Source: Bacteroidota bacterium (GTDB lineage: Bacteria > Bacteroidota > Bacteroidia > Bacteroidales > VadinHA17). Taken from it: 64,000 nucleotides of DNA. How positions within the stretch are numbered: position 1 is the stretch's first letter; the number at the start of each line of letters is the position of its first letter. The position numbers were made by a program, and so were the translations under genes. The stretch spans positions 29,721 to 93,720 of the forward strand of contig JAZDMU010000053.1 of the NCBI GenBank assembly GCA_043800695.1. Direction: 5' to 3'. The notes beneath the pieces are model-generated. The model did no database searches. It was not told the DNA's origin and worked only from the letters and a program-made list of their open reading frames with translations. Below are positions 43,382 to 62,350 of the stretch, piece after piece.

Positions 43382-44515
43382 ATGAATATGACTGTAAACC
43401 ATATACTCAATAAAAACTCTCTTGAAAAAGAAGATATCATCTCCCTTCTCCAGTCTAAAGGCGAGGACAGAACTCTCCTTTTCAGAAAGTCCGCTGAGGT
43501 AAAAGAAAAATATATCGGCAAAAAAGTCTGGTTCCGGGGACTCATTGAATTCTCAAACATATGCAGTAAAGACTGCCTCTATTGCGGTATCAGGAAAGGA
43601 AACAAAAATCTCGTACGCTACAGTCTTACTGATGATGAAATTCTGGCAGCGGCCAGATTTGCTTTTGAAAACAAATATGGCTCAATAGCCCTCCAGTCGG
43701 GAGAACTCGAAAGTCCTTCCGTTACTGACAGGATCGGGAACCTTCTGCACAAAATCAAGGAGCTTTCAGGCGGGAAACTTGGAGTTACACTTTCTGTCGG
43801 CGAACAGGAACCTGAAGTATATAAAGAATGGTTTGACGCGGGTGCACACAGATATCTCCTGCGTGTTGAATCAACAAATATTGAACTCTACAGAAAGATC
43901 CACCCGAATGACGGGAAACATGATTTCCACAGAAGACTCGCATGCCTTAAAAGCCTCCAGGACATTGGATATCAGACAGGCACAGGCGTAATGATCGGAT
44001 TGCCGTTCCAGACTCCTGAAGATCTTGCAGACGACCTTATCTACATGCGCGATTTCGACATTGACATGTGCGGACTGGGCCCTTATATTGAGCATGCTGA
44101 TACGCCTCTGATCGAACATGCTGATAAATTACTGCCTCTCACTGAAAGGTTTGATCTGACCCTGAAAATGATCGCAATTCTGAGAATTATGATGAAGGAC
44201 ATAAATATTGTTGCGGCCACAGCTTTGCAGGCGATAGATCCGATCGGAAGGGAAAAAGCAATAAAGATCGGAGCAAACATAATTATGCCCAATATCACCC
44301 CGGGTAAATACAGGGACAGTTATAAGCTTTATGAAAATAAACCTTGTACTGATGATTCGGCCGAGGATTGCCAGAGCTGTCTTGAAGCAAGGGTGAGCCT
44401 GGCTGAGGCAGAAGTGATCTACGGGGAATGGGGAGACTCAAAGCATTTTGAAAACAGGCTCAGGGCTCAGGGCGCAGAGCGCAGAGCACAGGGCTCAGAA
44501 AAGAGGAAACCGTGA
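43382..44515 (+). CDS. hydE: [FeFe]-hydrogenase H-cluster maturase HydE (radical SAM)
   Basis: Start moved to MNMTVNHIL, because the upstream 21 codons translate the family-E repeat. CSKDCLYCGIRKGN (CX3CX2C) on a biotin-synthase-like fold. The tail RAQGAERRAQGSEKRKP is encoded by a CAGGGCN array. Confidence 0.8.
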   Translation: MNMTVNHILNKNSLEKEDIISLLQSKGEDRTLLFRKSAEVKEKYIGKKVWFRGLIEFSNICSKDCLYCGIRKGNKNLVRYSLTDDEILAAARFAFENKYGSIALQSGELESPSVTDRIGNLLHKIKELSGGKLGVTLSVGEQEPEVYKEWFDAGAHRYLLRVESTNIELYRKIHPNDGKHDFHRRLACLKSLQDIGYQTGTGVMIGLPFQTPEDLADDLIYMRDFDIDMCGLGPYIEHADTPLIEHADKLLPLTERFDLTLKMIAILRIMMKDINIVAATALQAIDPIGREKAIKIGANIIMPNITPGKYRDSYKLYENKPCTDDSAEDCQSCLEARVSLAEAEVIYGEWGDSKHFENRLRAQGAERRAQGSEKRKP

Positions 44516-44550
44516 AACTCCTTGGTTAACTCCGTGCAACTCCGTGGTTA
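44457..44550. repeat. CAGRGCN heptamer array followed by AACTCCGTG repeats
   Basis: ggctcagggctcagggcgcagagcgcagagcacagggctcag ... ccgtgaaactccttggttaactccgtgcaactccgtgg. Confidence 0.85.
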
Positions 44551-44576
44551 GATTGATGATTACTAAACCTATAGAT

Positions 44577-47144
44577 ATGAAAAAGACAATCCTGATCCAG
44601 ATACTTATAATTGCATCAGTATTGGTCAAGGCACAGGTTACGCTTGACTATTATCTTCCCTCAGACGTCACCTACAACTCTTCAACCCCGACCCCGAAAC
44701 AGATTGCGGGTCACGAGATAGGTGAATGGCACCTCACGCATGATAAGCTTTATTTCTACATGCTTGAACTGGCCAGGGTATCCGAAAGGGCAGTATGGGA
44801 AGAGTACGGAAAAAGCCATGAAGGACGTCCTCTCGGACAGCTTATTATAAGCTCACCTGAAAATATCAGGAACATTGAGCAGTTACGTCAACAGCATCTT
44901 TTATTGTGCGATCCGTCTCATTCGGGGAAACTGGATATCAGTATAATGCCGGTTTTCATAAAGCTGGGGTATGGAGTGCACGGTAATGAATCGAGCGCCC
45001 AGAATGCATCGACACTGGTTGCATATTACCTTGTCGCAGGTGAAGGAGCAAAGATAGATGAGCTTCTGAAAAACGCTGTCATTCTGGTAGATCCATCGCT
45101 TAACCCCGACGGTATGCAGCGTCATTCCACATGGGTCAATTTTACTAAGAGCCTCAACAATAATCCCGATGCAAATTCCTGGGAGTTCAGCGAAAACTGG
45201 CCGGGAGGAAGGACCAACCATTACTGGTTCGATCTTAACCGTGATTATATAATGCTCCAGCACCCCGAATCTGTTGGCCGGGTCGCCGCATTCTTCAGAT
45301 GGAGACCGAACATAAACACCGATCACCATGAGATGGGTGCTAATGCAACATTCTTCTTCCAGCCTGGCGTGCAGAGCAGGAACAATCCCCTCACACCTTC
45401 TGATAACCAGGCACTTACTGCCGAAGTAGGCTTATACCATGAGAAATACCTTAACAGGATAGGCAGCCTTTACTATGCTGAAGAAGGATATGATGATTTT
45501 TATGTCAGCAAAGGCTCGTCATACCCTGATATACACGGGTCGGTGGGAATTCTCTTTGAGCAGGCCGGAGTAAAAGGACATCTGAGAAATACGGTCAACG
45601 GGCTTCTTTCATTTCCGTTCGCCATCAGAAACCAGTTTAATGTATCGCTTTCAAGCCTGGAGGCGGGACTTAACATGAAAAACAAACTTCTGGAAAGCCA
45701 GAGGAAATATTTCACAGATATTCCGGCCCTCGCCGACCGGCACCCTGTGAAAGCCTATATATTCACTGAGCCGGATGATAATTACAGATTGTCGGAATTC
45801 ATCAAAAACCTTCTTTACCATAAGATCAGGGTTTACAGACTATCAAAGGATATAATCAGGGACGGAATCACTTACAGGGCAGACAACAGCTATGTGGTTC
45901 CGCTGAAGCAGAACGAGCACAGGTTCATCCGGAGCCTGTTCGAACCGATTAAAGAGTTCACCGACAGCGCTTTTTATGATGTATCTACCTGGGTATTGCC
46001 AATGTCATTCAACATTCAATATTCAGCGATTAACGTTATTAAGGAGATGGAAGGTCTTGCAGGAGCTGAAATTACTGAAACACCTGTTGTCGCCGGAAAA
46101 ATTGAAGGTATTGGAGATCTATATGCATACCTCTTCGGGTGGAACGAATATCTTGCACCCAAAGCTCTCTATGCGCTTCAGTCCGCAGGAATAATCACTA
46201 AAGTAGCCACAGGCAGATTTACCTATGATGACGGTAGTTTCAGGCATGAGTTCCTGTATGGCACAATACTGGTTCCGGTTTCAGGGCAATCTCTTTCACC
46301 CGAGCAGGTCAGGTCGCTGATCGGGACCATTGCAGCGGATTGCCGGATAACAGTATATGGAGTAAGCACAAGCCTTACACCAGAAGGTATCGACCTCGGG
46401 AGCTCAGGATTCACTGTTCTCCGCAAACCCTCGATACTCATGATAGTCGGAGATGGCACAAACAGCACTGATGCCGGAGAGATATGGCACATGCTTGATA
46501 CACGCTTCAATATGCCGGTGACCATGGTAACGGCCTCACGGTTCGGATCAGTCGATCTGAGCGGATACAATGTGCTTATCATAACCGGATCGCCCGATAT
46601 CAGTCCGGCAGGCATAGAGAATATCAGTACATGGAACCGCCAGGGAGGTACACTGATTGGTTATGAATCGGGCAACAACTGGCTGGCCAGGAATAAACTC
46701 GCTGAAATAGAATATGTTCCGGAACCGGAACCGGTAAAGAAGGAAGGTGAGTACGCCAATCGCACGCTTGATAATCTGTCACGTCAGATCCCGGGTTCGA
46801 TTTTTGAAACAGAGCTTGATCTTACCCACCCGCTCTGCTATGGCATTACAAGAGACCGTCTTCCGGTTTTCAAATCGGGAGCTTCAGCTTCAATAAAGGA
46901 TAAGAATATTTACAATAACCCGGTGATTTATTCTTCAAATCCGCTGCTCAGCGGCTACTGCTCAAAAACTAATGCTGAGAGGCTGAGCGGATCGGCTTTT
47001 GCCAGCGTTCACGGCGCCAGGGTGATCTCAATTTATGACAATACCAATTTCAGGGCTGTCTGGTACGGTACGAACAAGATATTCATGAATGCGGTGTTCT
47101 TCGGGCAGATCCTCGGACAAGGCAGGTATGAGTACGGAGAATAG
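44577..47144 (+). CDS. M14-family zinc carboxypeptidase-like protein, secreted
   Basis: Start moved to MKKTILIQILIIASVLVKAQ (signal peptide). Zn motif GVHGNESS (HxxE), then a long C-terminal extension. Confidence 0.8.
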   Translation: MKKTILIQILIIASVLVKAQVTLDYYLPSDVTYNSSTPTPKQIAGHEIGEWHLTHDKLYFYMLELARVSERAVWEEYGKSHEGRPLGQLIISSPENIRNIEQLRQQHLLLCDPSHSGKLDISIMPVFIKLGYGVHGNESSAQNASTLVAYYLVAGEGAKIDELLKNAVILVDPSLNPDGMQRHSTWVNFTKSLNNNPDANSWEFSENWPGGRTNHYWFDLNRDYIMLQHPESVGRVAAFFRWRPNINTDHHEMGANATFFFQPGVQSRNNPLTPSDNQALTAEVGLYHEKYLNRIGSLYYAEEGYDDFYVSKGSSYPDIHGSVGILFEQAGVKGHLRNTVNGLLSFPFAIRNQFNVSLSSLEAGLNMKNKLLESQRKYFTDIPALADRHPVKAYIFTEPDDNYRLSEFIKNLLYHKIRVYRLSKDIIRDGITYRADNSYVVPLKQNEHRFIRSLFEPIKEFTDSAFYDVSTWVLPMSFNIQYSAINVIKEMEGLAGAEITETPVVAGKIEGIGDLYAYLFGWNEYLAPKALYALQSAGIITKVATGRFTYDDGSFRHEFLYGTILVPVSGQSLSPEQVRSLIGTIAADCRITVYGVSTSLTPEGIDLGSSGFTVLRKPSILMIVGDGTNSTDAGEIWHMLDTRFNMPVTMVTASRFGSVDLSGYNVLIITGSPDISPAGIENISTWNRQGGTLIGYESGNNWLARNKLAEIEYVPEPEPVKKEGEYANRTLDNLSRQIPGSIFETELDLTHPLCYGITRDRLPVFKSGASASIKDKNIYNNPVIYSSNPLLSGYCSKTNAERLSGSAFASVHGARVISIYDNTNFRAVWYGTNKIFMNAVFFGQILGQGRYEYGE

Positions 47145-47229
47145 TTGCTAGTTGCTAGTTGCTCGTTGCTCGTTGCTTGTTGCTTGTTATCTGGCTTTAA
47201 CCAGCAACCAGCAACCAGGAACCAGCAAC
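47145..47229. terminator. Family A heptamer hairpin: GTTGCTN x6 facing AACCAGC x4
   Basis: gttgctagttgctagttgctcgttgctcgttgcttgttgcttgtt-atctggcttt-aaccagcaaccagcaaccaggaaccagcaac fills the whole gap between convergent genes. Confidence 0.8.
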
Positions 47230-47231
47230 TT

Positions 47232-47756
47232 TCAAAATACCATCCTCCGGACGTGCACTTGCTTTAATGCTTTCAGGTCCCTTTCAAGATGTTCACGTTG
47301 TGCATGGTCACCTGTAAGCTCAAGGATGATCAGTCCGGCCGGCTGGCCGAAAAAGGTTTCATTGACTCCCAGCCGGGTGCGTATATAACAGCCGTAAGCT
47401 GTAAGCACTTTCTGGACTGCTGAAACAACATAAATATCTTTTTCAACAAGTATTCCCAGTATTTCAGCCGTATCATCAGCTATTCCGGCAATTGTTTTTT
47501 CATTCTCCGAAGAGAAGATCATCTGGCTGAAGACAACCCCGCCAAGAGGTTCAAGCTCGCTGATCAGCCTATCGGATTCCGACTCGTCATCTTTCAGGTG
47601 CAGAATGATATAAGCTTCGCGGCTGCAGACATTGTCTGTAACCTCATGAAATCCGAGACGCGTTGTGATAACTCCGGCGTGCCTCGATAAGATTCCCTGT
47701 GTAAGCCCGGCTTCCTTTATCCGGTCAACTATTTTAATCCCAAGTACTTTTATCAT
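47232..47756 (-). CDS. Tandem-duplicated TM1266-like (ACT/NikR-C-like) putative iron-only hydrogenase system regulator
   Basis: Start moved to MIKVLGIKIV. There are two ~85-aa halves, each with the TM1266-family pattern (ILGI.V......V..+L......I..RLG......G+I.LEL.G). It lies next to hydG. Confidence 0.6.
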   Translation of the reverse strand: MIKVLGIKIVDRIKEAGLTQGILSRHAGVITTRLGFHEVTDNVCSREAYIILHLKDDESESDRLISELEPLGGVVFSQMIFSSENEKTIAGIADDTAEILGILVEKDIYVVSAVQKVLTAYGCYIRTRLGVNETFFGQPAGLIILELTGDHAQREHLERDLKALKQVHVRRMVF

Positions 47757-47798
47757 TGGTTTGTTTATAGATATTTTTCTTAACCACGAAGTTTCACA

Positions 47799-47877
47799 GT
47801 CCCGAGTACTCGGGATCACGGAGTGACACGGTTTTTTCTTTTTTGAACCCTGTGCCCTGTGCCCTGCGCCCTGAGCC
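47799..47877. repeat. Family B 33-nt element with the perfect palindrome TCCCGAGTACTCGGGA, plus a CCCTGNG heptamer array
   Basis: gtcccgagtactcgggatcacggagtgacacgg (47799-47831), then ccctgtgccctgtgccctgcgccctgagcc (47847-47877) directly after the hydG stop. Confidence 0.85.
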
Positions 47878-47879
47878 TT

Positions 47880-49304
47880 TTAAAAATACAGATCCCTTTC
47901 ACCTTTTTTTATACGTTCAATCTTTTCCCTTGTATTCTGAGCAACTCCAGGTTCAAGGGTTGCCATGTTTTTCTCAATCACTTTCCAACCTTTTTCGGCC
48001 ACCTCTCCGGAAGCATAATCGCATATATATTCCGAAAGAGTGAGGATGGCGTTCGGAGTGCAGAACCTCTTTATGAATCCCGGCACCGAGAACTCCATGA
48101 AGTGTTCGCCTGTCCTTCCCATTCTATAGCATGAAGTGCAGAACGATGGCAGGTAATCGTTTGTAAGAAGCTCATCAATCACCTCCGCGAGCGACCGGGG
48201 GTCATTAATCCTGAACTGTTCACGGTTGAGATTCTGAGTCTCATTCTTTGACCCGGAATATGATCCCAGTTCAAGTTTTGTTCCTCCATCTATCTGTGAT
48301 ACACCATATTGCAGAACTTCCCTTCTGACGTCAGGATTCTCCCTGGCTGTCAGTATCATTCCGGTATAAGGCACCGCCAGCCTGAGAATGGCTACAAGTT
48401 TTTTGAAATCTTCATCACTGGTCTGGTACTGTCCGTTGATATTCAGACTGAGAGCGTCTTTTATCCTTGGAAATGAGATTGTATGGGGTCCTACGTTATA
48501 GCAGGCTTCGAGATGATTTGTATGGCGCACCAGTCCAAGCACTTCGAACCTCCAGTCGTAAAGACCAAACAGCGCCCCGATCCCGACATCATCAATACCT
48601 GCTTCCTGTGCCCTGTCAAGCGCGGTTAACCTCCATTCATAATCTTTTTTCTTTCCGCCCAGGTGATACCACTTGTAGGCGTCCGGATGATATGTTTCCT
48701 GGAAGATCTGATAGGTACCTATTCCTGCATCTCCCACTATCCTGAACCCGTCAATATCGAGTGGCGCTGCGTTAATGTTCACCCTGCGAATTTCACCATG
48801 TCCTTTTTTAATACCATACACAAGCTTAACTGTGTGAGCTATGTATTCGGGTGAATACTCCGGATGTTCACCATAAACCAGGATCAGGCGTTTCTGTCCG
48901 TTATCTTCAAGGGCCTCAACTTCATTAATGATCTCTTCATCAGAAAGGGTTTTTCTTACAGCATCTTTGTTTGAAACCCTGAATCCGCAATACTGGCAGT
49001 TGTTGGTACAACGGTTACCTATATATAAAGGTGCAAACAGTACGATCCTGTTGCCATACACTTTCTCCTTGAGCTCCCTGGCTCCCTGCCTTATCTCATC
49101 AGCAAGGTCGGTTCCTATCGAATTTACAAGGACAGCGGTCTCCTCCATGGTCAGCCTTTTCTTATCGAGCGACTTTGCAATTACATCTCTTACCCTTTGT
49201 TTATCGGGTTTTGTGTTATTGATAAGATCCCATATCTCGAAAGGATCAATGAATGGTTTCATCCGCTGGTCCGGGATACTTAATTTTTCAGGTGAGAACC
49301 TCAT
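47880..49304 (-). CDS. hydG: [FeFe]-hydrogenase H-cluster maturase HydG (radical SAM tyrosine lyase)
   Basis: CTNNCQYCGF (CX3CX2C) and the C-terminal CTSC-x22-C auxiliary cluster motif. 474 aa. Confidence 0.9.
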   Translation of the reverse strand: MRFSPEKLSIPDQRMKPFIDPFEIWDLINNTKPDKQRVRDVIAKSLDKKRLTMEETAVLVNSIGTDLADEIRQGARELKEKVYGNRIVLFAPLYIGNRCTNNCQYCGFRVSNKDAVRKTLSDEEIINEVEALEDNGQKRLILVYGEHPEYSPEYIAHTVKLVYGIKKGHGEIRRVNINAAPLDIDGFRIVGDAGIGTYQIFQETYHPDAYKWYHLGGKKKDYEWRLTALDRAQEAGIDDVGIGALFGLYDWRFEVLGLVRHTNHLEACYNVGPHTISFPRIKDALSLNINGQYQTSDEDFKKLVAILRLAVPYTGMILTARENPDVRREVLQYGVSQIDGGTKLELGSYSGSKNETQNLNREQFRINDPRSLAEVIDELLTNDYLPSFCTSCYRMGRTGEHFMEFSVPGFIKRFCTPNAILTLSEYICDYASGEVAEKGWKVIEKNMATLEPGVAQNTREKIERIKKGERDLYF

Positions 49305-49367
49305 GAATTGTTTGATTTAAATATTTGCAAAGATAACCGTAAAACGGCTCTGGTGTCCTGACAACAG

Positions 49368-50279
49368 TCAGTATATAAGTTCAATTATCTCAGCTCTTGC
49401 CGTACTCAGCTTCATGTGTGTTTTTTCATCAGTAAGGGAGACAGAGCCATGAATTTTCTTATGGAAAAGTATCTCAGTATTTTTGCCTGTAAAACATTCC
49501 CGGTTGTCAAAAATCTGAACCAGTACTTTCGGCTGTGCCTGGCCTTCGTCAGTAATCAATGCCATTCCCTTGGATATATTTAAATCAAGCACCACTGAAA
49601 CAGCATATATTCCCGGTGCAGGCAGCAGCTTGCATTCTTCCGTTACCGGTATGCAGCAGAATCCGGGGAGTAGTTCAGATGATCCGGTTTCAGGTTTTCC
49701 GATAATGAGATAATAGTGATCAAGATAAGCGTTTGCTCTCTGGATATATCCCTCCACTATGGCTTTTCGTATTTTTGTTGAGCTCACTGTTTCATGCTGC
49801 ACCTCCTGTTCGGGTATCTCCTCTGCCTCGAAGCCATATTTATTTCTCCAGCCCCAGAGCTGCCTGTAATCGCCCTCCTGGTTAAACCCGAAATGGTGAT
49901 TGAATCCGACAACCACAACACTTGCGTGCAGAACGTCGTGAAGTAAGTCTCTTACAAACTGCTCACTTGTGATCTTTGAAAATTCCCTGGTGAATGTGAC
50001 TATTATGAGGTTGTCAAGTCCGGCTTTTTGCAAGAGTTTCAGTTTTTCCTCCTGTGAATTGATGAGCTTCAGGCCCTTGCCAGCAGTATCGGGATAGAGC
50101 ACTTTCCGGGGATGGGGATCAAAGGTTATCAGTACCGATTCTCCCTCATGCTTCTGAGCCAGCATCCTGAGCCTGTTCAGGATTGTCTTGTGCCCTATAT
50201 GCACACCGTCGAATGAGCCTGTTGTGACGACAGGATTCCTTATTCCGCTGACCGCTTCAAAGCCTCTGAAGATCTTCAT
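49368..50279 (-). CDS. ribF: Bifunctional riboflavin kinase / FAD synthetase
   Basis: VVTTGSFDGVHIGHKTIL and the C-terminal riboflavin kinase domain. Confidence 0.9.
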   Translation of the reverse strand: MKIFRGFEAVSGIRNPVVTTGSFDGVHIGHKTILNRLRMLAQKHEGESVLITFDPHPRKVLYPDTAGKGLKLINSQEEKLKLLQKAGLDNLIIVTFTREFSKITSEQFVRDLLHDVLHASVVVVGFNHHFGFNQEGDYRQLWGWRNKYGFEAEEIPEQEVQHETVSSTKIRKAIVEGYIQRANAYLDHYYLIIGKPETGSSELLPGFCCIPVTEECKLLPAPGIYAVSVVLDLNISKGMALITDEGQAQPKVLVQIFDNRECFTGKNTEILFHKKIHGSVSLTDEKTHMKLSTARAEIIELIY

Positions 50280-50294: not shown

Positions 50295-50918
50295 CTAGAG
50301 TGTATTTTCCTTGACGAAGTATGCAACTTTTTCAATCGAGGTTATCATGTCGTACTCTTCAAGATATACCCATGATGGCACGTTTAATGGTATTGTGGTA
50401 AAATTCAGTATGCCTTTTACCCCGTATTTTACCGCCTCTTCAGCGATATCCCTGGCAAAATCAGCAGGTACAGTGATTATGGCGATCCGGATATCAAGCT
50501 CCCTGATCACCCTCTCCATCTCTGTGTGCGGATAGCATTTAACACCCGAAATCACTTTGTTCACCTTCTGGAGATCGGTATCAAATGATGCCACAAGGTT
50601 GAGTTTTGATCTTTTGCCCTTGAAATATCCGGCTACTGCCCTGCCAAGGTTCCCGATGCCAATAATTGCCACATTCAGTGTTTCGGGTGAATCGATCACG
50701 GTGCCTATTTTATCAATAAGCTCCCTGACATCATAACCTTTCCGCTGGACAGAAGCATATCCTATCAGCATCAGGTCGCGTCTTACCTGGACAGCTGTGA
50801 TATGAAGGCGGGCTGCCAGATCATGTGAAAAGATGAAGTTCTTTTTCTCGTTGAGACACTCCAGAAGGGTCCTTCTGTATTCACTGAGTCTTTCGATGGT
50901 TTTTCCCGGTAGTTTCAT
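50295..50918 (-). CDS. rex: Redox-sensing transcriptional repressor Rex
   Basis: TIERLSEYRRTL.., winged-helix VQVRRDLMLIGY, Rossmann IIGIGNLGRAVAGY, ILNFT. Confidence 0.9.
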   Translation of the reverse strand: MKLPGKTIERLSEYRRTLLECLNEKKNFIFSHDLAARLHITAVQVRRDLMLIGYASVQRKGYDVRELIDKIGTVIDSPETLNVAIIGIGNLGRAVAGYFKGKRSKLNLVASFDTDLQKVNKVISGVKCYPHTEMERVIRELDIRIAIITVPADFARDIAEEAVKYGVKGILNFTTIPLNVPSWVYLEEYDMITSIEKVAYFVKENTL

Positions 50919-52456: not shown

Positions 52457-52468
52457 TCTTTCCTGGGT

Positions 52469-52505
52469 CTTTTATCTTTTGTCTTTTATCTTCATTCTTT
52501 TCTCC
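52469..52505. repeat. TTTTNTC heptamer array
   Basis: ttttatc ttttgtc ttttatc ttcattc ttttctc spans the 3' end of the sensor-kinase gene and the gap before the REC gene. Confidence 0.7.
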
Positions 52506-54453: not shown

Positions 54454-54578
54454 GTTCCTTGTTCCTTGTTCCTTGTTGCTTGTTGCTTGTTACTTGTTGC
54501 TTGTTGCTTGTTGCTTGTTGCTTGTTGCTCGTTACTTGTTGTTTATAACCAGCAACCAGTAACCAGCAACCAGCAACT
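54454..54578. repeat. Family A heptamer array: 13 x GTTNCTT, then ~4.5 x AACCAGC
   Basis: gttcctt x3, gttgctt x2, gttactt, gttgctt x4, gttgctc, gttactt, gttgttt, ata, accagcaaccagtaaccagcaaccagcaac. It occupies the whole hydA stop to hydS-HK start gap. Confidence 0.9.
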
Positions 54579-56300
54579 TTATAGCAAGACGTCTCTCTTC
54601 TCAAAATGCGTATAAAATATCTTCTTATCAGATATCTCCCTGTTCTCCTTCAGAAGCTTTTCGTACATTTTAATAATGACTGGTGATTTTTCAGGGATGC
54701 TAACAGCATCTGTTTCGTCGGCCTGCAGGATGATTTTTGCACGGTTCTTCCTTTCTTCCTTTGTCTCCTTCAATGCCAGTCCGGCCCCGTTGACGCAACC
54801 GCCGGGACAGGTCATCACCTCAACAAGATCATATTTCTTGCCGGCGGACCGGGCTGACTTAAGCTTTTCAAGTCCTGTAAGTCCATCGACCACAGCAACG
54901 CTGATCTCAAGCGTTCCTGTATTGAAAAAAGCTTCCCTGAAGTTCCCCGAGCCGCGCAGTTTTTTGAACATCTGTTTTTCAGCTTCATTTCCGGTGAGTC
55001 TGAACCATGCTGACCTGATGACTCCTTCGGCCATTCCTCCGGATATTTCAGCCATAGCTGCAACGGAGCTTCTTCCCTCCATCGGCTCATCGGCAGGCTC
55101 CTGACCTGCATTGGTTATGTCAATTCCATATAACCGTATTAGCCGTGCGAGCTCCCTGATGGTGAGCACCGAATCGACATCGCTGATCCCTTTGCGCATC
55201 ATTCCGTCGCGGCGGGCTTCAAACTTCATAGCAATACAGGGTGTGACTGAGACGGAAAATATCTTTTCGGCTTTCGCTGATGACTGTGAGGCAACAAGTG
55301 TTTTGATCAGAGCCCCGGTAATCTGCTGCGGTGATTTTACTGTTGAAAGGTCAGACAGCAGCGACGGCATGAACTGCTCCGCGTATTTTACCCATGCAGG
55401 GCAAGCACTTATGAACAAAGGCTTTTCCGATTTGGATCTGATCCTGCCCAGAAGCTGGTCAGTAATTTCCGAAATGCAGATATCAGTACCGGTACCAGTG
55501 TTAAATACCTTATCGAAGCCCATTTTGCGAAGGATCGAATTGAGCACCCTGTCAAAATCCCTGCTGTATCTGACACCCATCTCCTCTGCGATGCCTGCCG
55601 GCACCAGGGGTGAATACTGGATAACCTTCAGTATATCAGGTTTGTTCAGGTACTCCTGCACCTCCGTGATATTATGCTTCTCATGAAGCGCAGCTGTAGG
55701 GCAAACTAGCACACATTGTCCGCAGTTTATGCAGCTGGAGAAGTTGAAATCGCGGTCCATAGCCGGGCCAACATGAGTCAGCCTGCCCTTGTTAATAAAA
55801 TCAAGAGAGGTCGGAGTGATCAGTTCTTCGCATATCCTCACACATCTTCCGCACAGGATGCATTTTGAGAGCTCCCTGACAATTGCCGGACTTGACTGAT
55901 CGAGACGCGGCTTGATCTTTCTGGAGCGAATCCTCCGCTCCCTTATGTTAAGCTCTTCAGAGAGCCGCTGAAGCTCACAATCCAGGTTGCGGTCGCAGTA
56001 AAGGCAATCGTCAGGATGGTTCGAGAGAAGCAGTTCAACAATTGTTTTTCTTGCAGTTATAACCCTTGGTGAATGGGTCTTTATCTTCATCCATTCCTCA
56101 ACAGGTTGAGAACAGGCAGTAACGAGCCGGTCACGCCCCTCGACCTCCACAACACACATCCTGCAGGCACCCGTTGGAGTAAAATCCTTCATCCTGCAAA
56201 GAGTGGGAATGATGATACCATTGCGGTTAAGAGCCGAGAGTATAGTTTCTCCCTTTTCAGCCCTGAGCTTCTTGTTATTTACCTCTATTGTAAAAACCAT
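54579..56300 (-). CDS. hydA: [FeFe]-hydrogenase large subunit HydA-like (M3 architecture) with non-canonical H-cluster motifs
   Basis: N-terminal 2Fe-2S (CRMKDF..GACRMC), NuoG-like His/Cys cluster, CILCGRCVRIC and CINCGQCVLVCP. H-domain motifs are ISACPAW, TPCIAMKFE and EVMTCPGGCVNGAG. Gene order is hydC-hydB-hydA. Confidence 0.8.
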   Translation of the reverse strand: MVFTIEVNNKKLRAEKGETILSALNRNGIIIPTLCRMKDFTPTGACRMCVVEVEGRDRLVTACSQPVEEWMKIKTHSPRVITARKTIVELLLSNHPDDCLYCDRNLDCELQRLSEELNIRERRIRSRKIKPRLDQSSPAIVRELSKCILCGRCVRICEELITPTSLDFINKGRLTHVGPAMDRDFNFSSCINCGQCVLVCPTAALHEKHNITEVQEYLNKPDILKVIQYSPLVPAGIAEEMGVRYSRDFDRVLNSILRKMGFDKVFNTGTGTDICISEITDQLLGRIRSKSEKPLFISACPAWVKYAEQFMPSLLSDLSTVKSPQQITGALIKTLVASQSSAKAEKIFSVSVTPCIAMKFEARRDGMMRKGISDVDSVLTIRELARLIRLYGIDITNAGQEPADEPMEGRSSVAAMAEISGGMAEGVIRSAWFRLTGNEAEKQMFKKLRGSGNFREAFFNTGTLEISVAVVDGLTGLEKLKSARSAGKKYDLVEVMTCPGGCVNGAGLALKETKEERKNRAKIILQADETDAVSIPEKSPVIIKMYEKLLKENREISDKKIFYTHFEKRDVLL

Positions 56301-56305: not shown

Positions 56306-58240
56306 TTATTTTACTGTTATAGCGCTGAACTTGCAGATATCATAGCATATCCCGCAGCCAATGCACTTATCCTCTACAATAAAGAATGGCTGAAGCCTGG
56401 TTCCGTAGATTGCATTCACAGGGCATTTTGATGCGCAGGCTGTGCACCCTGTGCATTTTTCCACATCGATTGAAAATGTCCTGAGTCCCCTGCAGATATT
56501 GGCTCTGCATTTTCTGTCGAAAATATGCTCCTCGAATTCCTCTCTGTAATTCCTGAGTGCACTGAGGAACGGGTTGGGAGCATTCTGCCCGAGACCGCAC
56601 AATGAAGTATCCTTCATTACCGATGCGATGTTCTCGAGCTGCATTACCCCCTTGAAGCGTTCGAGGGTGGTGCCTGATTCCTCATTATCAGGCTTTCTTA
56701 TTATGCTCTCAAGTATCTCGAGCATTCGACCTGTTCCTTCACGGCACGGTATGCATTTACCGCAGCTTTCATTACGCATGAACTCCATATAATGCCTTAT
56801 CAGGTCAACCATGCACGTGTTCTCATCAATGATAACAAAGCCTCCTGCACCCATCCCGATTCCCTTCTCCTTCAATGCATCAAAATCGATCTTCATATCG
56901 AGGTTCTCAGATGTGATGAAGGAGCCGGTAACGCCTCCAAGCTGAACAGCCTTGAGCTCTTTTCCATCTTTTATGCCGTCGGCAATATCCTCGAGGATGG
57001 TTCTGACTGAAGTCCCCATTTCCACTTCAATCACACCCGACATTCTTCCCCTGCCTGCCACTGCAAAAACTTTAGTGCCCGGACTATTTTCTGTTCCGGT
57101 TCTCCTGAACCATTCGGGCCCGTTCTGCATGATCAGCGGCACATTCATCAGTGTCTCAACGTTATTGATCACTGTCGGCTTGTTGAACAATCCCGCCGTG
57201 GATGGGTAGGGAGGCTTGAGCTTTGGCATTCCCCTCTTGCCTTCAAGAGTGCTTATAAGAGCTGTCTCCTCACCGCATACAAAAGCCCCTGATTCTTTCC
57301 GTACGGTAATATCAAGTCCGTAGCCGCTTGAAAATATGTTGTGTCCAAGGAGTCCATACTCTCTTGTTCTCTCGATTGCTGTCCGGATTCTCTGCAGGGC
57401 GTGCTCCGATCCTTTCCTGAAGAATATTATTGCATTCGAGGAGCCGATAGCATAGGAAGCGATGGCTATTCCCTCAATAAGCCGGTAAGGGTCGCTTTCC
57501 AGCAGAGTCCTGTCGGTAAATGCACCAGGGTCGCTCTCCTTTGCATTGCATATCAAGTATTTTATTGAGGATCCGGTATTGAGCGCCTGTTTCCACTTAA
57601 GTCCAGTTGGATATCCGCCGCCCGATCTGCCCCTGAGGCCGCTTCTTTCAATAATATCGCATACCTCCTCAAAAGTGTAGTGCCTGATAGTTTTGGAAAA
57701 AATCCTGAATCCTCCGCGGGCTATATATTCTTCAATGCTTTCCGGATCGTAGCATCCGCAGTTGTTCATCACGATCCTCTTCTGACGGGAAAAAAACGGC
57801 AATTCCTCCAGGAAAGGTATTCCGGGCCACATTTCAAATCCGTGTGTTCCGTGCTGACCTGCCAGGTCATCTTCATTTATATCGTTGTGAAAGACACCAT
57901 TAAGGAGAGATTCAACTTTTTCTTCCGTTATATTCCTGAAGAACAGTTTGTTTTTGCCGGGAAGCTGAATGCATACAAAGGGTTCAAAGTTAGCTGGTCC
58001 CTGGCACCCAACCTTTACCAGTCCGGCATTAAGTTCATTGTCTGTGATATACTCCCGGAGAGCCGCCCATGTCCTTTCCGACCCTGAAATAATGCTTCTG
58101 GTACCTGACGAAACATAGATGATGGGCACTGTTGTCTTTTCCCTTCTGACTTCCTGCAGAACCCTCTCAGTTTCCGATGATACGACATCAGATTCAAGCA
58201 ACAGCACACTCTCAACCAGGTATTTCTTCAGATCTTCCAT
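56306..58240 (-). CDS. hydB: HydB, NuoF-like flavoprotein subunit of the trimeric hydrogenase
   Basis: FMN/NADH block GLRGRSGGGYPTGLKW..ICNAKESDPGAF, N3 cluster SCGKCIPCREG..C, and a C-terminal 2x[4Fe-4S] (CTGCTACASKCP, CIGCGICYDIC). Confidence 0.85.
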   Translation of the reverse strand: MEDLKKYLVESVLLLESDVVSSETERVLQEVRREKTTVPIIYVSSGTRSIISGSERTWAALREYITDNELNAGLVKVGCQGPANFEPFVCIQLPGKNKLFFRNITEEKVESLLNGVFHNDINEDDLAGQHGTHGFEMWPGIPFLEELPFFSRQKRIVMNNCGCYDPESIEEYIARGGFRIFSKTIRHYTFEEVCDIIERSGLRGRSGGGYPTGLKWKQALNTGSSIKYLICNAKESDPGAFTDRTLLESDPYRLIEGIAIASYAIGSSNAIIFFRKGSEHALQRIRTAIERTREYGLLGHNIFSSGYGLDITVRKESGAFVCGEETALISTLEGKRGMPKLKPPYPSTAGLFNKPTVINNVETLMNVPLIMQNGPEWFRRTGTENSPGTKVFAVAGRGRMSGVIEVEMGTSVRTILEDIADGIKDGKELKAVQLGGVTGSFITSENLDMKIDFDALKEKGIGMGAGGFVIIDENTCMVDLIRHYMEFMRNESCGKCIPCREGTGRMLEILESIIRKPDNEESGTTLERFKGVMQLENIASVMKDTSLCGLGQNAPNPFLSALRNYREEFEEHIFDRKCRANICRGLRTFSIDVEKCTGCTACASKCPVNAIYGTRLQPFFIVEDKCIGCGICYDICKFSAITVK

Positions 58241-58729
58241 TTAATCATTTTCAACAATGAACCTGAGCTTTTTGATAAATTCAGGCAGATGGTCAGGCCT
58301 GATATGAGTATGATACTCGTCATTTACACGGATCACTGGTCCTCTATTGCAGCCGCCCATGCATGTCTCAATCTCATAGCTGAAAATCCCGTCCCTGCCT
58401 GTCTGCCCCGGAGCAAGTCCGGTTATCTCTCCTATCTTCGTTATCACTGCCTGTGAACCGTTAATGTAGCATGATGTCCCGTTACAAATCCTTATATGCA
58501 CTTTGCCTGCGGGGATAAACCTGAACTGGTCGTAAAATGTTGCCAGTCCGTAGATCTTGGTAGTGCTGAGACCAATAAAAGTACCTGCCTTAACAATAGT
58601 CTCCTCGGATAAAAAGCCTTCAGCATCCTGAATATCCTGAAGGAGCGGAATAAGGTCCTCCCTTCGTCCTGGTTTATACTTTTTGAATATTGCATCGCTA
58701 TTCTGACCCATCAGAATGATAATTAACAA
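58241..58729 (-). CDS. hydC: HydC, NuoE-like thioredoxin-fold [2Fe-2S] subunit
   Basis: ICNGTSC..CMGGC motif, 162 aa. The true start is probably MGQNSD. Confidence 0.85.
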   Translation of the reverse strand: MLIIILMGQNSDAIFKKYKPGRREDLIPLLQDIQDAEGFLSEETIVKAGTFIGLSTTKIYGLATFYDQFRFIPAGKVHIRICNGTSCYINGSQAVITKIGEITGLAPGQTGRDGIFSYEIETCMGGCNRGPVIRVNDEYHTHIRPDHLPEFIKKLRFIVEND

Positions 58730-58767
58730 TATACAAATATAAATAATTTATTGTGAAAAAATAAACA

Positions 58768-58785
58768 TTGTTAATTAATTAACAA
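58768..58785. promoter_or_regulatory. Candidate Rex operator (perfect 18-bp palindrome)
   Basis: TTGTTAATTAATTAACAA fits the TTGTTAAnnnnTTAACAA / TTGTGAAnnnnTTCACAA Rex-box class. It lies 39-56 nt upstream of the hydC start in the hydCBA / 2Fe-2S-hydS divergent region. A degenerate half-site, TTGTGAAAAAATAAACAT, abuts it at 58751-58768. Confidence 0.65.
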
Positions 58786-58997
58786 TAAAAAAGGAAAATA
58801 TAGCTTAATAGTATTCGCGTGTATCTTACTGTTTATCAGTGCCATAAAAATATCATGTATTTTAATGCTAATCTGATGACCTGAATCTCGCATCCGTTTT
58901 ATCTCTTTAGTTTCTTGAATTTTAGGCTTTTTGGAAGTAACCGGCGCATGAAAAAATTTATTACTTTTGATGTTGTTGTTCAACAATAAACAGTGAA

Positions 58998-59255: not shown

Positions 59256-59275
59256 ACAAGGAAGGGAGAAGCAAG

Positions 59276-61165
59276 ATGACCGCAATAAAACCTGTTTTGT
59301 ACATAAACGACGACAGATGCAGGAATTCATATTCCTGTGTAAGGGTTTGCCCTGTAAATGCCATTGAGGTCAAACCGCAGAAGCTTCATCCCACGATCAT
59401 ATCTCAGAGATGCATAGGATGCGGGCTCTGTTATGTCTCCTGCTCGCCCGGGGCGATTGAATTCCGCGATTCAAATGAGGATGTTAAGGCGCTGCTGTCG
59501 TCGGGCAGGAAAAAGGCGGCCCTGATAGAACCAAGCATTGCATCGGAATTTGATGATATCACTGACTACAGGAAGTTTGTTGCCATGATCCGGTCGCTGG
59601 GATTTGACTATGTTCATGAGGTCTCTTTCGGTGTGGATCTTATTGCAGCCAAATATGCTGACCTCTTCAGCACTTCCGAAGGCAAATATTACATAACGGC
59701 AAATTGTCCGTCAATAGTAAAGATCATCGAGAAATTCCATCCCGAGCTGACGCCAAACCTTGCACCTCTGGTATCGCCCATGATAGCTACCGCAATGGTA
59801 GTGAGGGAACTGTACGGACCGGATTGCGCCACCATCCAGATCGGGCCCTGCATAGACGCCAAGGACGAAGCCCTGCTATACAGCTCAGGAAAGCTGATAG
59901 AGGGGGTTCTCACATTCACCGAACTACGCCAGCTTTTCGATGAGTCCGGTATTCAGGAGAGGCTCGTAAAGATATCGGATTTTGATGCGCCACACGGCTA
60001 CTGGGGCGCCCTCTACCCTCTTCCGGCAGGGATAATACAGGCCGGAGGGATCAAACGTGATATGGTCTCCAGTAAGGTCATCACGGCATCGGGTAAGGAG
60101 GATATTCTTGAGGCTATAAATGATTACGATAAATATATTGATACTATACATCATCATTTCAACTTGTTTTTCTGCCATGGCTGCCTGCTCGGGCCGGGCA
60201 TGGAACATCACAATGAAAGATTCCGCCGAAGAGCCCTGGTGAGCCGCTATACTGAAAAAAGGATCTCCGTTCTCGATAAAGAGGCATGGAATAAAAACAT
60301 GGACAAATGGCTGAAGCTTGATTTCTTGCGGACCTTCACCCCTGATGATCAGAGGATCCCGGAACCTCCTGTTGAAGCTGTGAACGAAGTGCTCAAGATC
60401 ATAGGAAAACAGGACTCCAGCGAGGAGCTCGACTGCGGGGCATGCGGATATATGTCGTGCCGCGATTTTGCATCAACGGTTGCAAAGGGACTGGCAGTCC
60501 CGGAGATGTGCCACACGTTCAATCTGCGCAACAAGCAGGAATATATTGAAACCCTGAGACAGACAAACAGAAAGCTCGCTGAGACAAAAAAAGCCCTCAA
60601 GGAATCAGAAGAGCTTGCACTCCGTGAAAAAGAGGTGGCACAAAGCGCATCCGATATGATGAACAGCATGCTCGAAAAGCTGCCAATAGGAGTCGTAATT
60701 GTCGATAAAAGCCTGAAGATACTTCACTCCAACCTTAGCTTTATAAACACGATAGGCGAAGATGCGAAAGCGATTGCAGACGTAATACCCGGTCTGGCAG
60801 GGGCAGATATCAAGACCCTGATTCCCTTCAATATCTATAACATGTTCTCTTTTGTGTTAAAGGAAGACGAACCCGTTGTTAGCAAGGATGTTCACTGGGA
60901 CGACAGGATGCTCAATATTTCGATATTCCCCATCAAGAAAAACAAAATGTGCGGTGCTGTGATCCGTGACTTGTATTCACCTGAAGTACAGGCAGAAGAG
61001 GTCACTAACAGGGTAAGTGAAGTAATAGAGAAGAATCTCGAGATGGTTCAGAAGATCGGGTTCCTGCTCGGCGAAGGGGCATCAGAAACAGAACAGATGC
61101 TTAACTCGATCATAGAGTCATACAGGAAAAGAAGCAGCAGCAAAAACAGCGGAAACAAATCATAA
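59276..61165 (+). CDS. Sensory [FeFe]-hydrogenase-like protein with C-terminal PAS domain (group C3-like HydS/HfsB-like)
   Basis: 4Fe-4S motifs (CRNSYSCVRVCP, CIGCGLCYVSCS). H-domain with TANCPSIV / GPCIDAKDE / NLFFCHGCLLGPG. CGACGYMSC..C linker, coiled coil, and PAS-like LEKLPIGVVIVDKSLKILHSN. Confidence 0.8.
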   Translation: MTAIKPVLYINDDRCRNSYSCVRVCPVNAIEVKPQKLHPTIISQRCIGCGLCYVSCSPGAIEFRDSNEDVKALLSSGRKKAALIEPSIASEFDDITDYRKFVAMIRSLGFDYVHEVSFGVDLIAAKYADLFSTSEGKYYITANCPSIVKIIEKFHPELTPNLAPLVSPMIATAMVVRELYGPDCATIQIGPCIDAKDEALLYSSGKLIEGVLTFTELRQLFDESGIQERLVKISDFDAPHGYWGALYPLPAGIIQAGGIKRDMVSSKVITASGKEDILEAINDYDKYIDTIHHHFNLFFCHGCLLGPGMEHHNERFRRRALVSRYTEKRISVLDKEAWNKNMDKWLKLDFLRTFTPDDQRIPEPPVEAVNEVLKIIGKQDSSEELDCGACGYMSCRDFASTVAKGLAVPEMCHTFNLRNKQEYIETLRQTNRKLAETKKALKESEELALREKEVAQSASDMMNSMLEKLPIGVVIVDKSLKILHSNLSFINTIGEDAKAIADVIPGLAGADIKTLIPFNIYNMFSFVLKEDEPVVSKDVHWDDRMLNISIFPIKKNKMCGAVIRDLYSPEVQAEEVTNRVSEVIEKNLEMVQKIGFLLGEGASETEQMLNSIIESYRKRSSSKNSGNKS

Positions 61166-62350
61166 TTGAACAGGGATTTCTACATAGAAGTAAACAGCCA
61201 GCAGCGCAATCATGACGGAGAAAAGATCTGCGGCGATGTTTTTCTTTACAGGTCGATAAAGGAAGAAGACAGGGTGATAGCAGTGCTCTCCGACGGCATG
61301 GGGCATGGTGTAAAAGCAAACATTCTGGCCACACTCACATCGACAATGGCTCTTAATTTTACCCGCGAACACAAAGAGGTCGATCGTATCGCTGAAATAA
61401 TAATGAATACCCTCCCTGTCTGCAGCGAAAGGAAAATAAGTTACTCAACTTTTACCATTGTCGATATTGAGAGCAGCGGCAAAGCCACAATACTTGAATA
61501 CGACAATCCCCAGGCAATAGTGTTGAGAGGCAATCAGCTGTTTGACCCGGGATGGAAGAAGGTGGTCCTTGAAAAGGGAAAGCATGCGGGTAAAGTCCTG
61601 AAAACATGCACATTCATGCCCGAAAAGGAAGACAGGATAGTATTCTGCTCCGACGGAGTGGCACAGAGTGGCATGGGCAGCGAGCCATTTCCATTCGGCT
61701 GGGAGAGGGATAATGTTGCAGGGTATGCTTCAACACTTGTAACCAGCGAGGGTTCCATCTCAGCTTCAATGCTGGCAGGCAAGATCGTGACAATGGCGCA
61801 CAAGAACGACTCCTACAGGGCAAAAGACGATATCAGCTGTGCAGTTATTTACTTCCGCGAGCCACGCAAGCTGCTGCTATGTACCGGTCCGCCCTTTGAA
61901 AAGGAAAAGGACAGGGATCTGGCATTAAAGGTGAAGGATTACAAGGGCAAGGTTATCCTGTGCGGAGGAACGACTGCCGACATAATTGCCAGGGAACTTG
62001 ACAGGAAGATCGTTGATGAGCTTATTTTTGAGGACCCTGACCTCCCTCCCGAGAGCTTCCTGGAGGGAATTGACCTGGTTACAGAAGGGATACTGACACT
62101 GCAGAAAGTAAATGAAATACTCAAGAGCTATAACAACAGCGTGAAGCTTGGAAAAGGTCCTGCCGACAAGATAGTGAAGCTGCTGATGGAAAGCGATGAG
62201 ATACATTTCATTATTGGCACACGGATCAACATAGCTCACCAGGATCCGAATCTCCCGGTTGAACTGGAGATAAGGAGAACTGTCGTCAAACGCATCGCCC
62301 GGCTTCTTGAGGAGAAGTGGCTGAAGAATGTAACGTTTGAATATATATAA
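61166..62350 (+). CDS. PP2C/SpoIIE-family serine phosphatase with a C-terminal uncharacterised domain (HfsC-like)
   Basis: ICGDVF..IAVLSDGMGHGVKANILA..FCSDGV motifs. TTG start directly after the hydS stop. The ~160-aa C-terminal region (GKVILCGGTTADIIAREL...) is unassigned. Confidence 0.8.
   Translation: MNRDFYIEVNSQQRNHDGEKICGDVFLYRSIKEEDRVIAVLSDGMGHGVKANILATLTSTMALNFTREHKEVDRIAEIIMNTLPVCSERKISYSTFTIVDIESSGKATILEYDNPQAIVLRGNQLFDPGWKKVVLEKGKHAGKVLKTCTFMPEKEDRIVFCSDGVAQSGMGSEPFPFGWERDNVAGYASTLVTSEGSISASMLAGKIVTMAHKNDSYRAKDDISCAVIYFREPRKLLLCTGPPFEKEKDRDLALKVKDYKGKVILCGGTTADIIARELDRKIVDELIFEDPDLPPESFLEGIDLVTEGILTLQKVNEILKSYNNSVKLGKGPADKIVKLLMESDEIHFIIGTRINIAHQDPNLPVELEIRRTVVKRIARLLEEKWLKNVTFEYI

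Follow-up and report, generated by a model that had tools for sequence, protein, structure and literature searches.

A conserved Bacteroidales locus encoding a HydABC-type hydrogenase with a non-canonical HydA, two paralogous HydS-like proteins and Rex

The window analysed here is a stretch of 64,000 nucleotides from a Bacteroidota bacterium of the lineage VadinHA17 (contig JAZDMU010000053.1, positions 29,721 to 93,720). The region from 43.3 to 62.4 kb of this 64-kb window encodes an [FeFe]-hydrogenase of the HydABC type bracketed by two proteins resembling sensory hydrogenases (HydS). One of these, HydS-HK, is fused to a histidine kinase and the other, HydS-PAS, carries a PAS-like domain and is followed by a PP2C-type phosphatase; the NADH/NAD+-sensing repressor Rex is encoded alongside.

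Gene content and recurrence of the locus

The inventory was drawn up from an open reading frame (ORF) listing and from Pfam and NCBIfam profile searches of the region. A first-pass annotation, made from the sequence alone, had listed the genes of the locus, and the profile searches recovered all of them at or near the positions given there. The central part of the locus is as follows, with the strand in brackets.

49368-50279 (-): ribF-like FAD synthetase gene (PF06574 FAD_syn, 6e-45)
50295-50918 (-): rex, NADH/NAD+-sensing repressor (NF003995, 194 bits, cut-off 126)
50939-52060 (-): hybrid REC-HisKA-HATPase protein (Pfam; D65, H159 and N/G boxes in the sequence)
52082-52456 (-): stand-alone receiver (REC) domain (PF00072; D56 in the sequence)
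52492-54453 (-): HydS-HK, 653 residues, 2x[4Fe-4S]/H-domain/Cx2Cx4Cx16C/coiled coil/HisKA/HATPase (Pfam)
54454-54578 (-): gap between hydA and hydS, with heptamer arrays
54579-56300 (-): hydA, M3-type H-cluster subunit with a non-canonical pocket (best solved match T. kivui HydA1, 8a6t_A)
56306-58240 (-): hydB, NuoF-like FMN/NADH subunit with a C-terminal 2x[4Fe-4S] domain (Pfam; match to 7t2r_B)
58241-58711 (-): hydC, NuoE-like [2Fe-2S] subunit, 156 residues from the ATG (PF01257, 8e-40; start read from the sequence)
58734-58741 (-): -7 promoter box TATATTTG (TAnnTTTG), Bacteroidetes-type, of the hydC operon (read from the sequence)
58751-58785: predicted tandem Rex operators, TTGTTAATTAATTAACAA at 58768-58785 and TTGTGAAAAAATAAACAT at 58751-58768 (pattern scan)
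58962-58986 (+): conserved block 5' of the 2Fe-2S gene, a -7-like TACTTTTG and then the palindrome TTGTTGTTCAACAA
59001-59255 (+): small thioredoxin-like [2Fe-2S] protein, 84 residues, Cx4C...Cx3C (PF01257, 2e-9)
59276-61165 (+): HydS-PAS, 629 residues, 2x[4Fe-4S]/H-domain/Cx2Cx4Cx16C/coiled coil/PAS-like/two helices (Pfam)
61166-62350 (+): PP2C/SpoIIE-family Ser/Thr phosphatase with an uncharacterised C-terminal domain (PF07228, 1e-11)

A hydC gene of 156 codons and a 2Fe-2S gene of 84 codons, matching the lengths in the window, are also called in a related locus, L081.

One genome per GTDB species was scanned, and 347 stretches were found to encode a relative of the kinase-fused sensor. The best 80 of these, with 76-96% identity to that sensor, made up the synteny set; the window proteins were placed on them by tblastn and the counts given here are of loci with enough flank. 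In this survey, which the first-pass annotation had proposed as a check, both sensors were again found around one HydABC: hydCBA lies directly upstream of the kinase-fused sensor in 64/65 loci, and an operon of the hfs type (small 2Fe-2S protein, PAS-type HydS, PP2C) diverges from hydC in 57/60. The genes for REC, the REC-kinase, Rex and RibF follow the kinase-fused sensor in 68 of the 69 loci that could be scored. The whole set is syntenic in ~95% of the 80 species-level relatives, all 80 of which are Bacteroidales from one order-level clade, and the arrangement is therefore far beyond chance. The nearest proteins all come from metagenome-assembled genomes (MAGs) labelled Bacteroidales, Bacteroidia or 'Rikenellaceae'. 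The genes thus form a locus type that a large uncultured Bacteroidales clade has conserved, and chance juxtaposition is ruled out.

The gap between hydA and the sensor kinase has a median of only 21 bp in 74 relatives, so the two genes are almost certainly co-transcribed. Together with the ~95% synteny, this supports the earlier view of the locus as a coherent regulatory and enzymatic unit. In the window the gap is a lineage-specific 125 bp of heptamer arrays (GTTGCTG/CAACAAG), which could form an imperfect long hairpin (fold -41 kcal/mol, z = -4.2); relatives have other fillers, or only ~21 bp, at this position. Short tandem arrays with units of 7-8 nt, e.g. GTTGCTG, TAGTTGC, GGCTCAG and TAACGGCG, fill many intergenic gaps of the window, often just past stop codons (9802-9835, 23653-23718, 36751-36896, 44457-44498, 47142-47229, 47848-47877, 52467-52501, 54453-54577 and 62348-62464). 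A scan of 43-62.6 kb for sigma-70 promoters and intrinsic terminators, a scan unsuited to Bacteroidetes, gave counts no higher than those of shuffled sequence.

The clustering might reflect inherited gene order only, with the PAS/PP2C operon uncoupled from the hydCBA-kinase operon. As the 80 loci come from one order-level clade, their conservation is partly shared ancestry; flanking genes, such as the NUDIX gene convergent with that of PP2C, are syntenic in relatives too. In addition, three relatives have no PAS/PP2C module and are otherwise unchanged, efflux-pump fragments occupying the divergent-operon position in one of them. However, protein identity among the relatives goes down to 50-80% and the intergenic DNA has largely diverged, yet the divergent layout and both promoter-proximal blocks (see below) persist, and unrelated phyla show the same pairing of 2Fe-2S protein, HydS-PAS and PP2C with HydABC (PMC3561251). 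This explanation is considered very improbable.

Two paralogous sensors and a non-canonical HydA

HydS-HK and HydS-PAS share 39% identity over 470 residues. The similarity spans the ferredoxin-like domain, the H-domain, the C-terminal Cx2Cx4Cx16C motif and the coiled coil, and both proteins have Fer4, PF02906 and PF04060 matches in Pfam. After the coiled coil they part ways: in HydS-HK a HisKA H-box follows, in HydS-PAS a domain of another kind. Judged by their sequences, the two sensors are paralogs that differ only in their output domain.

Loss of the cluster-ligating cysteines from the H-domains had been named in the first-pass annotation as an outcome that would overturn its reading. When aligned to solved hydrogenases, all three H-domains of the locus keep the four H-cluster cysteines. 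The same alignment gave the following residues at four other positions of the sensors.

C299: Asp in HydS-HK, Asn in HydS-PAS
M353: Gly in HydS-HK, Gly in HydS-PAS
K358: Lys (kept) in HydS-HK, Ala in HydS-PAS
M497: Leu in HydS-HK, non-Met (Phe or Leu) in HydS-PAS

The corresponding motifs are SSDCP (C299D), GPCVAKKAE (M353G, K358 kept) and ELLCCEGC (M497L) in HydS-HK, and TANCP (C299N), GPCIDAKDE (M353G, K358A) and LFFCHGC in HydS-PAS. Among 120 homologs of each sensor these motifs are essentially invariant, and the H-cluster ligands and the C-terminal cluster motif are strictly conserved. Both proteins thus show the traits of HydS (group C, M2f), namely a four-cysteine H-domain, Cx2Cx4Cx16C and replacement of C299, M353 and M497, and both stand in an HydS-type context, encoded beside a multimeric hydrogenase of the bifurcating type and beside a kinase or phosphatase. 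No solved HydS structure was found in the PDB by sequence.

In HydS-HK, which has no PAS domain, HisKA comes directly after the coiled coil. Its H-box, AHELNNP, is present in 119/120 homologs; HATPase_c is matched over nearly its full length. The first-pass annotation had described the other H-domain protein as PAS-bearing. In Pfam the match falls below threshold (PAS_10, E = 0.016), and it is in structure prediction that the description finds support. The full-length AlphaFold2 (AF2) model of HydS-PAS, built on a shallow alignment, has a predicted local distance difference test (pLDDT) score of 46 and its C-terminal part alone was usable. A model of the C-terminal domain, itself of low confidence (pLDDT 57 to ~80), shows two strands, helices and three strands, with a long helix before them. 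In a Foldseek search of the PDB, PAS-type domains make up nearly the whole of its first 50 matches (best E = 2e-5), those of YF1, PYP, Aer2, NifL, BvgS and CitA among them, and the domain is probably a PAS domain.

The kinase-linked and phosphatase-linked sensors had also been set apart in the first-pass annotation as groups C1 and C3. This contrast is doubtful because the two are close paralogs, both with Gly353, because the C1 references in HydDB have no kinase domain and because HydDB scores kinase-fused sensors adjoining HydABC/BfuABC as C3 (PMC11406978).

The hybrid REC-HisKA-HATPase protein encoded downstream of HydS-HK has the H-box SHELKAPLN, and the phosphatase encoded downstream of HydS-PAS has the PP2C catalytic motifs GDVF, DGMGHG, SDG and DD. 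That the signalling proteins carry no DNA-binding output domain, as had been noted at first, was borne out, the only receivers being the bare REC and the REC-kinase. An effector-domain response regulator is likewise absent within 10 kb in the related locus L081. In L081 a second protein with a SpoIIE/PP2C domain (1096 residues) is encoded at 17354-20644 (-), ~4 kb beyond the locus.

An alternative is that the HydS-like proteins are sensors of redox state (the ferredoxin pool), O2 or CO, or else low-activity hydrogenases, and that the targets of the kinase and PP2C are unrelated to hydABC. H2-dependent signalling has been demonstrated for no group C/D [FeFe]-hydrogenase and the role of these groups is listed as undetermined (PMC5037454, PMC10055695); Asp299 of HydS-HK is also the one substitution that leaves prototypical enzymes active (PMC10055695), and the sensors have no transcription factor output within the locus. 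On the other hand, their linkage to the hydrogenase is very tight (the 21-bp median gap to hydA and ~95% co-occurrence), the H-cluster ligands and C-terminal cluster motif show the strict conservation described above, and maturases adjoin the sensors. The alternative is therefore regarded as improbable.

The third H-domain protein, HydA, has as its best solved match the bifurcating T. kivui HydA1 (8a6t_A, 421 bits, residues 5-568). It was also aligned to 7q4v_A and 7p5h_A, and C300, C355, C499 and C503 are kept. Its N-terminal cluster domains are NuoG-like (PF13510, PF10588, PF22117 and Fer4, for a 2Fe-2S, a His-ligated 4Fe-4S and 2x4Fe-4S clusters), and it scores 575 bits with the NCBIfam A6 model, under the cut-off of 765. 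HydB gave 563 bits with 7t2r_B (residues 42-641) and similar matches with 7p5h_B and 8a6t_B. Its domains (PF01512, PF10589, Fer4x2) correspond to an FMN/NADH site and a C-terminal 2x[4Fe-4S] domain, making it by sequence an HydB of the bifurcating type, while HydC belongs to PF01257. In the N-terminal thioredoxin-like domain of HydB (~130 residues), one [2Fe-2S] cysteine of four survives when the sequence is set against the bifurcating NiFe-HydB 7t2r_B, the other three reading S, S and A; the Pfam E-value for this [2Fe-2S] domain is 0.18. To judge from the sequences, the subunit architecture of HydABC is that of an NADH- plus ferredoxin-dependent (confurcating/bifurcating) [FeFe]-hydrogenase.

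The first-pass annotation had taken HydABC to be an ordinary enzyme. This does not hold for HydA, which lacks both the proton-transfer pathway and K358. It fails the canonical L1, L2 and L3 motifs (TSCCPxW, MPCxxKxxE and ExMxCxxGCxxGGGxP), L3 reading EVMTCPGGCVNGAGLA, and departs from the canonical sequence as follows.

TSCCP: ISACP (ISACPAW), C299 to Ala
MPCxxKK: TPCIAMK (TPCIAMKFE), M353 to Thr and K358 to Met
E279 and E282: Ile and Gln, both lost
GGGQP: GAGLA (GC..GAGLA)

M497, S319 and S323/P324/Q325 are retained besides the four H-cluster cysteines. The canonical proton-transfer pathway is absent from all three H-cluster proteins at the locus. The changes at C299, M353 and K358 are present in 120/120 of the nearest HydA homologs (77-96% identity), which ruled out sequencing errors or a pseudogene as their source. 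The clade is isolated: a search of 1.84 billion cluster representatives returned one representative at 74% identity and then nothing above 45%. Many of these next relatives are also without C299, K358 and E279, whereas canonical sequences predominate at greater distance. No cultured member of the clade was found, the clusters looked up containing MAG proteins only. The second match in the representative search, P0362, is a protein of 4122 residues with seven H-domain-like stretches. It may be a true giant with many hydrogenase domains, or an artefact of assembly or fusion.

As HydA has no canonical proton relay, the enzyme is likely to be slow or biased, or to use another proton path. TmHydS, with Ala at position 299, and TamHydS both bind H-clusters and catalyse slow H2 turnover (PMC10055695, PMC8163306). 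A survey of bifurcating enzymes dropped homologs without the L1-L3 motifs, a filter stated for HytA, which is homologous to HydA (PMC6085437); such motif filtering may explain why no description of the HydA clade was found.

HydABC might not be the working hydrogenase of the cell but a third H2 sensor, coupled to NADH and ferredoxin, or a redox valve of slow action, with bulk H2 turnover left to another hydrogenase encoded elsewhere in the genome (e.g. of group B or A1). The HydA pocket is sensor-like, with Ala299 as in TmHydS and Thr353 as in M2e or ~17% of sensors (PMC10055695, PMC8163306), and the fixation of its changes in all 120 nearest homologs and the isolation of the clade (74% identity within, then <=45% to the next relatives) would fit such a role. 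The A3 catalytic subunit of Bacteroides thetaiotaomicron, not necessarily a member of the HydA clade, also showed low activity and minimal transcription (PMC12578642). However, full HydB and HydC partners, ribF and the maturases are encoded beside HydA, and hydCBA heads an operon under predicted Rex control, as genes for a fermentative NADH sink usually do. HydA also retains M497 and S323/P324/Q325, TmHydS and TamHydS remain catalytic without C299, and HydABC carries no output domain. It seems rather unlikely, on balance, that HydABC is only a sensor or valve.

Rex, the divergent promoters and neighbouring genes

Rex consists of PF06971 and PF02629, a winged helix-turn-helix plus a Rossmann domain with the motif GIGNLG. 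As the first-pass annotation had it, Rex is the only DNA-binding protein that Pfam and NCBIfam detect among the proteins of the locus. A perfect 18-bp palindrome, TTGTTAATTAATTAACAA, lies 57 bp upstream of the hydC ATG and abuts the weaker TTGTGAAAAAATAAACAT; together the predicted sites span 40-75 bp upstream of the ATG, just 5' of the TATATTTG box. TAnnTTTG is the Bacteroidetes-type -7 promoter consensus. The predicted operator is of the variant TTGTTAA-N4-TTAACAA, which matches the Rex consensus TTGTGAANNNNTTCACAA. Only three sites in the 64 kb fit the Rex pattern with two mismatches or fewer. Another of them, CTGTGAAAAATTTAACAA at 22758-22775, matches the degenerate pattern with one mismatch inside a SpoIID-like gene (22482-23621) and is probably a chance match. 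No Rex-like site was found upstream of hydG or hydE, or in the gap between hydA and hydS, even at three mismatches.

Of the related loci with upstream sequence, all 64 carry a Rex-like site at this position, in most cases as the same two sites in tandem at a distance of 17 bp. This and the perfect palindrome in the hydC promoter support the earlier idea of an NADH/NAD+ input, to which autoregulation of rex can be added, since rex itself sits in the operon under predicted Rex control. In Caldicellulosiruptor (C. bescii), Rex represses [FeFe]-hydrogenase genes, hydG and rex (PMC6391272).

When 60 intergenic regions between the divergent operons were aligned, only two blocks were conserved and the DNA between them had diverged. 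The first is the operator with the -7 box (columns >=90%). The second adjoins the 2Fe-2S gene and consists of TACTTTTG and then TTGTTGTTCAACAA, which may be the operator for another regulator of the 2Fe-2S/HydS-PAS/PP2C operon. Although the arms of TTGTTGTTCAACAA look like Rex half-sites, the spacing between them is 4 bp instead of 8 bp.

The remaining genes of the region lie beyond ribF.

43319-44515 (+): hydE, H-cluster radical-SAM maturase (TIGR03956, 343 bits, cut-off 255)
44448-47144 (+): large M14-peptidase-like (zinc-carboxypeptidase-like) ORF (profile search)
47232-47755 (-): tandem ACT-like small protein related to CPF_0552/TM1266, 173 residues (NF052672, 132 bits, cut-off 85, two stretches)
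47880-49304 (-): hydG, H-cluster radical-SAM maturase (TIGR03955, 486 bits, cut-off 312)

The gene after hydG had been called a TM1266-type regulator. Its product scores instead as CPF_0552 (132 bits against a cut-off of 85), the TM1266 model giving 28 where 61 is needed. The protein, its ATG read from the sequence, is a tandem of two such domains; its gene also follows hydG in relatives and it is a putative regulator of the hydrogenase system. Within 9 kb of the sensor kinase, hydG is found in 33/56 loci and hydE in 37/56. In about ten loci (L005, L021, L025, L026, L027, L031, L034, L047, L055 and L065) a reverse-strand gene replaces the hydG/ACT-like pair downstream of ribF; its product is only 41-44% identical to HydG and could be either a different radical-SAM enzyme or a divergent HydG. 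The ribF-like gene, kept after rex in 68/69 loci, could supply FMN/FAD, HydB being an FMN protein.

The absence of hydF from the window, noted in the first-pass annotation, was upheld: no P-loop GTPase ORF was found in the 64 kb and none among ten mid-sized ORFs that were scanned. Nor was hydF found within 10 kb beyond the phosphatase in L081. The M14-peptidase-like ORF between hydE and the ACT-like gene, missing from the first-pass annotation, is present in only some relatives and is probably unrelated to the hydrogenase system.

Beside hydE, at 36886-43026 (-), lie genes suggestive of amino-acid/2-oxoacid fermentation: a 2-oxoacid:ferredoxin oxidoreductase (POR_N/PFOR_II, 38258-39340), an aminotransferase and an ADP-forming acyl-CoA synthetase, the gene for the last being syntenic in many relatives. 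These genes are a plausible source of reduced ferredoxin.

Related systems and the proposed role of the locus

Genes for sensory hydrogenases are known to precede those for bifurcating ones, in many cases together with a kinase gene (PMC3561251). In Thermotoga maritima, TM1420-1422 (a dimeric M2f sensor and a 2Fe-2S protein) adjoins HydABC (TM1424-1426), and the present locus shares this module (PMC3561251). Features in common with TmHydS are 2x[4Fe-4S], the H-domain, the C-terminal four-cysteine motif, a PAS domain (a probable one here), replacement of C299 and M353 to Gly (PMC3561251, PMC10055695). Unlike in T. maritima, the module here is transcribed away from hydCBA, the putative PAS domain has changed too far for Pfam to recognise it, and a kinase-fused paralog and rex are added; HydS-PAS has Asn at position 299, where TmHydS has Ala, and K358 is Ala.

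With hfsABCD of Thermoanaerobacterium saccharolyticum, the locus shares the small Fe-S gene in first position, a PAS-type HydS (hfsB) and a serine phosphatase (hfsC). Genetic evidence exists for a regulatory role of hfsABC (PMC5707799, PMC11837493), deletion of hfsB altering hydrogenase activity and adhE expression (PMC5707799). Unlike hfsABCD, the module has no equivalent of hfsD, a ferredoxin-type hydrogenase, and its neighbour is the divergent HydABC operon. Had HfsD been a kinase-fused hydrogenase, the dual arrangement would not have been new; this was ruled out, HfsD being ferredoxin-linked and HydA2-like.

In Hydrogenedentota, BfuT of BfuABC sub-types IV and V likewise places H-domain sensors with PAS or histidine kinase domains, both C3, beside bfuABC (PMC11406978). 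There each BfuT type has its own BfuABC, whereas here both flank one HydABC, with REC and rex in the operon. TamHydS (group D/M2e; Thermoanaerobacter, Caldicellulosiruptor) has in common with the sensors the Fer4x2/H-domain/Cx2Cx4Cx16C layout, the lack of the proton pathway, a kinase-type partner and a position upstream of the bifurcating enzyme (PMC8163306, PMC3561251), and with the window HydA an M2e-typical hydroxyl residue at position 353. Its kinase is separate, whereas that of the locus is fused and has a full HisKA-HATPase, and the sensors of the locus have Gly353 as in M2f. Finally, Firmicutes Rex regulons (C. bescii) have an 18-bp palindrome of the TTGTGAANNNNTTCACAA type 5' of [FeFe]-hydrogenase genes and rex autoregulation (PMC6391272). 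Unlike in those regulons, rex lies here inside a hydrogenase-sensor operon, the TTGTTAA-N4-TTAACAA operators are in tandem, the host belongs to the Bacteroidales and no site precedes hydG or hydE.

The locus is read, with somewhat better than even confidence, as one for the control of hydrogen metabolism, in which a Rex-controlled HydABC is accompanied by two HydS paralogs reporting H2 or redox poise. What is observed is the gene content, with its motifs, the paralogy, the synteny and the conservation of the operator; each functional step set out here is taken from precedent (PMC3561251, PMC5707799, PMC6391272). Operon 1, on the minus strand, would comprise hydC-hydB-hydA-hydS(HK)-REC-REC/HK-rex-ribF and probably continue to hydG and the ACT-like gene, driven by the Bacteroidetes-type promoter that the two tandem Rex operators overlap. 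At low NADH/NAD+, Rex would bind and repress the operon, including rex (negative autoregulation). When NADH rises, Rex would leave and the HydABC complex would be made, which would then oxidise NADH and reduced ferredoxin to H2 and so dispose of reducing equivalents. The ferredoxin could be reduced, for example, by the products of the adjacent aminotransferase, 2-oxoacid:ferredoxin oxidoreductase and ADP-forming acyl-CoA synthetase genes.

The two HydS paralogs would report H2 or H2/ferredoxin redox poise via their own H-clusters, the signal passing from the H-cluster to the C-terminal [4Fe-4S] cluster and on to the coiled coil. In HydS-HK the fused kinase would phosphorylate the co-operonic REC and REC-kinase, and HydS-PAS, with its small 2Fe-2S partner, would control PP2C via the PAS-like domain; the final output of the one and the final target of the other would both lie outside the locus. 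Like control has been proposed for the HydS of Thermotoga and Ruminococcus and for HfsABC of Thermoanaerobacterium.

Several points weigh against a hydrogen-metabolism control locus of this kind. On the catalytic side, HydA is without C299, E279, E282, M353 and K358, and prototypical enzymes are left inactive or severely impaired when C299 is exchanged for any residue but Asp (PMC10055695); the N-terminal [2Fe-2S] site of HydB is degenerate and hydF is missing nearby, both in the window and in the 10 kb of L081. On the signalling side, Pfam finds in the locus neither a response regulator with an effector or DNA-binding domain nor a PP2C substrate (STAS or kinase partner), the PAS assignment leans on an AF2 model with a pLDDT of 57, and the PAS/PP2C module is dispensable for the rest of the locus, being absent in the three relatives mentioned. 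All relatives of the lineage, moreover, are MAGs.

A more far-reaching possibility, considered distinctly less probable than the control locus, is that HydABC is a bifurcating-type hydrogenase with a new proton route, or that with the two HydS paralogs it forms a three-input comparator of NADH, ferredoxin and H2. In the comparator case the stand-alone REC might serve as a bridge between the His-Asp and PP2C branches.

Each module of the locus has already been described beside a bifurcating hydrogenase (PMC3561251, PMC5707799, PMC11406978). Literature searches found no description of both sensor outputs around one HydABC, of rex and a tandem operator inside such a Bacteroidales operon, or of an HydA without the proton pathway. 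The non-canonical HydA is the newest element of the locus, ahead of the double sensor bracketing.

The sensing of H2 and the adjustment of fermentation to it in anaerobes are unproven for every [FeFe] 'sensory' hydrogenase. The locus offers a natural comparison, in which two paralogous sensor cores are joined to two signalling chemistries, both beside their presumed target and with the NADH sensor Rex and its predicted operator, and this arrangement is kept in dozens of species common in fens, sediments and digesters. The HydA encoded there represents a whole clade of 'group A3' proteins without residues thought to be needed for fast catalysis, which bears on how far hydrogenase gene counts in metagenomes can be read as H2-production capacity, and which points to an alternative proton pathway. 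The significance of the locus would rise if the non-canonical HydABC were a sensor or were catalytically competent by a new proton route; in the latter case it would belong to a mechanistically new catalytic class missed by motif-filtered surveys.

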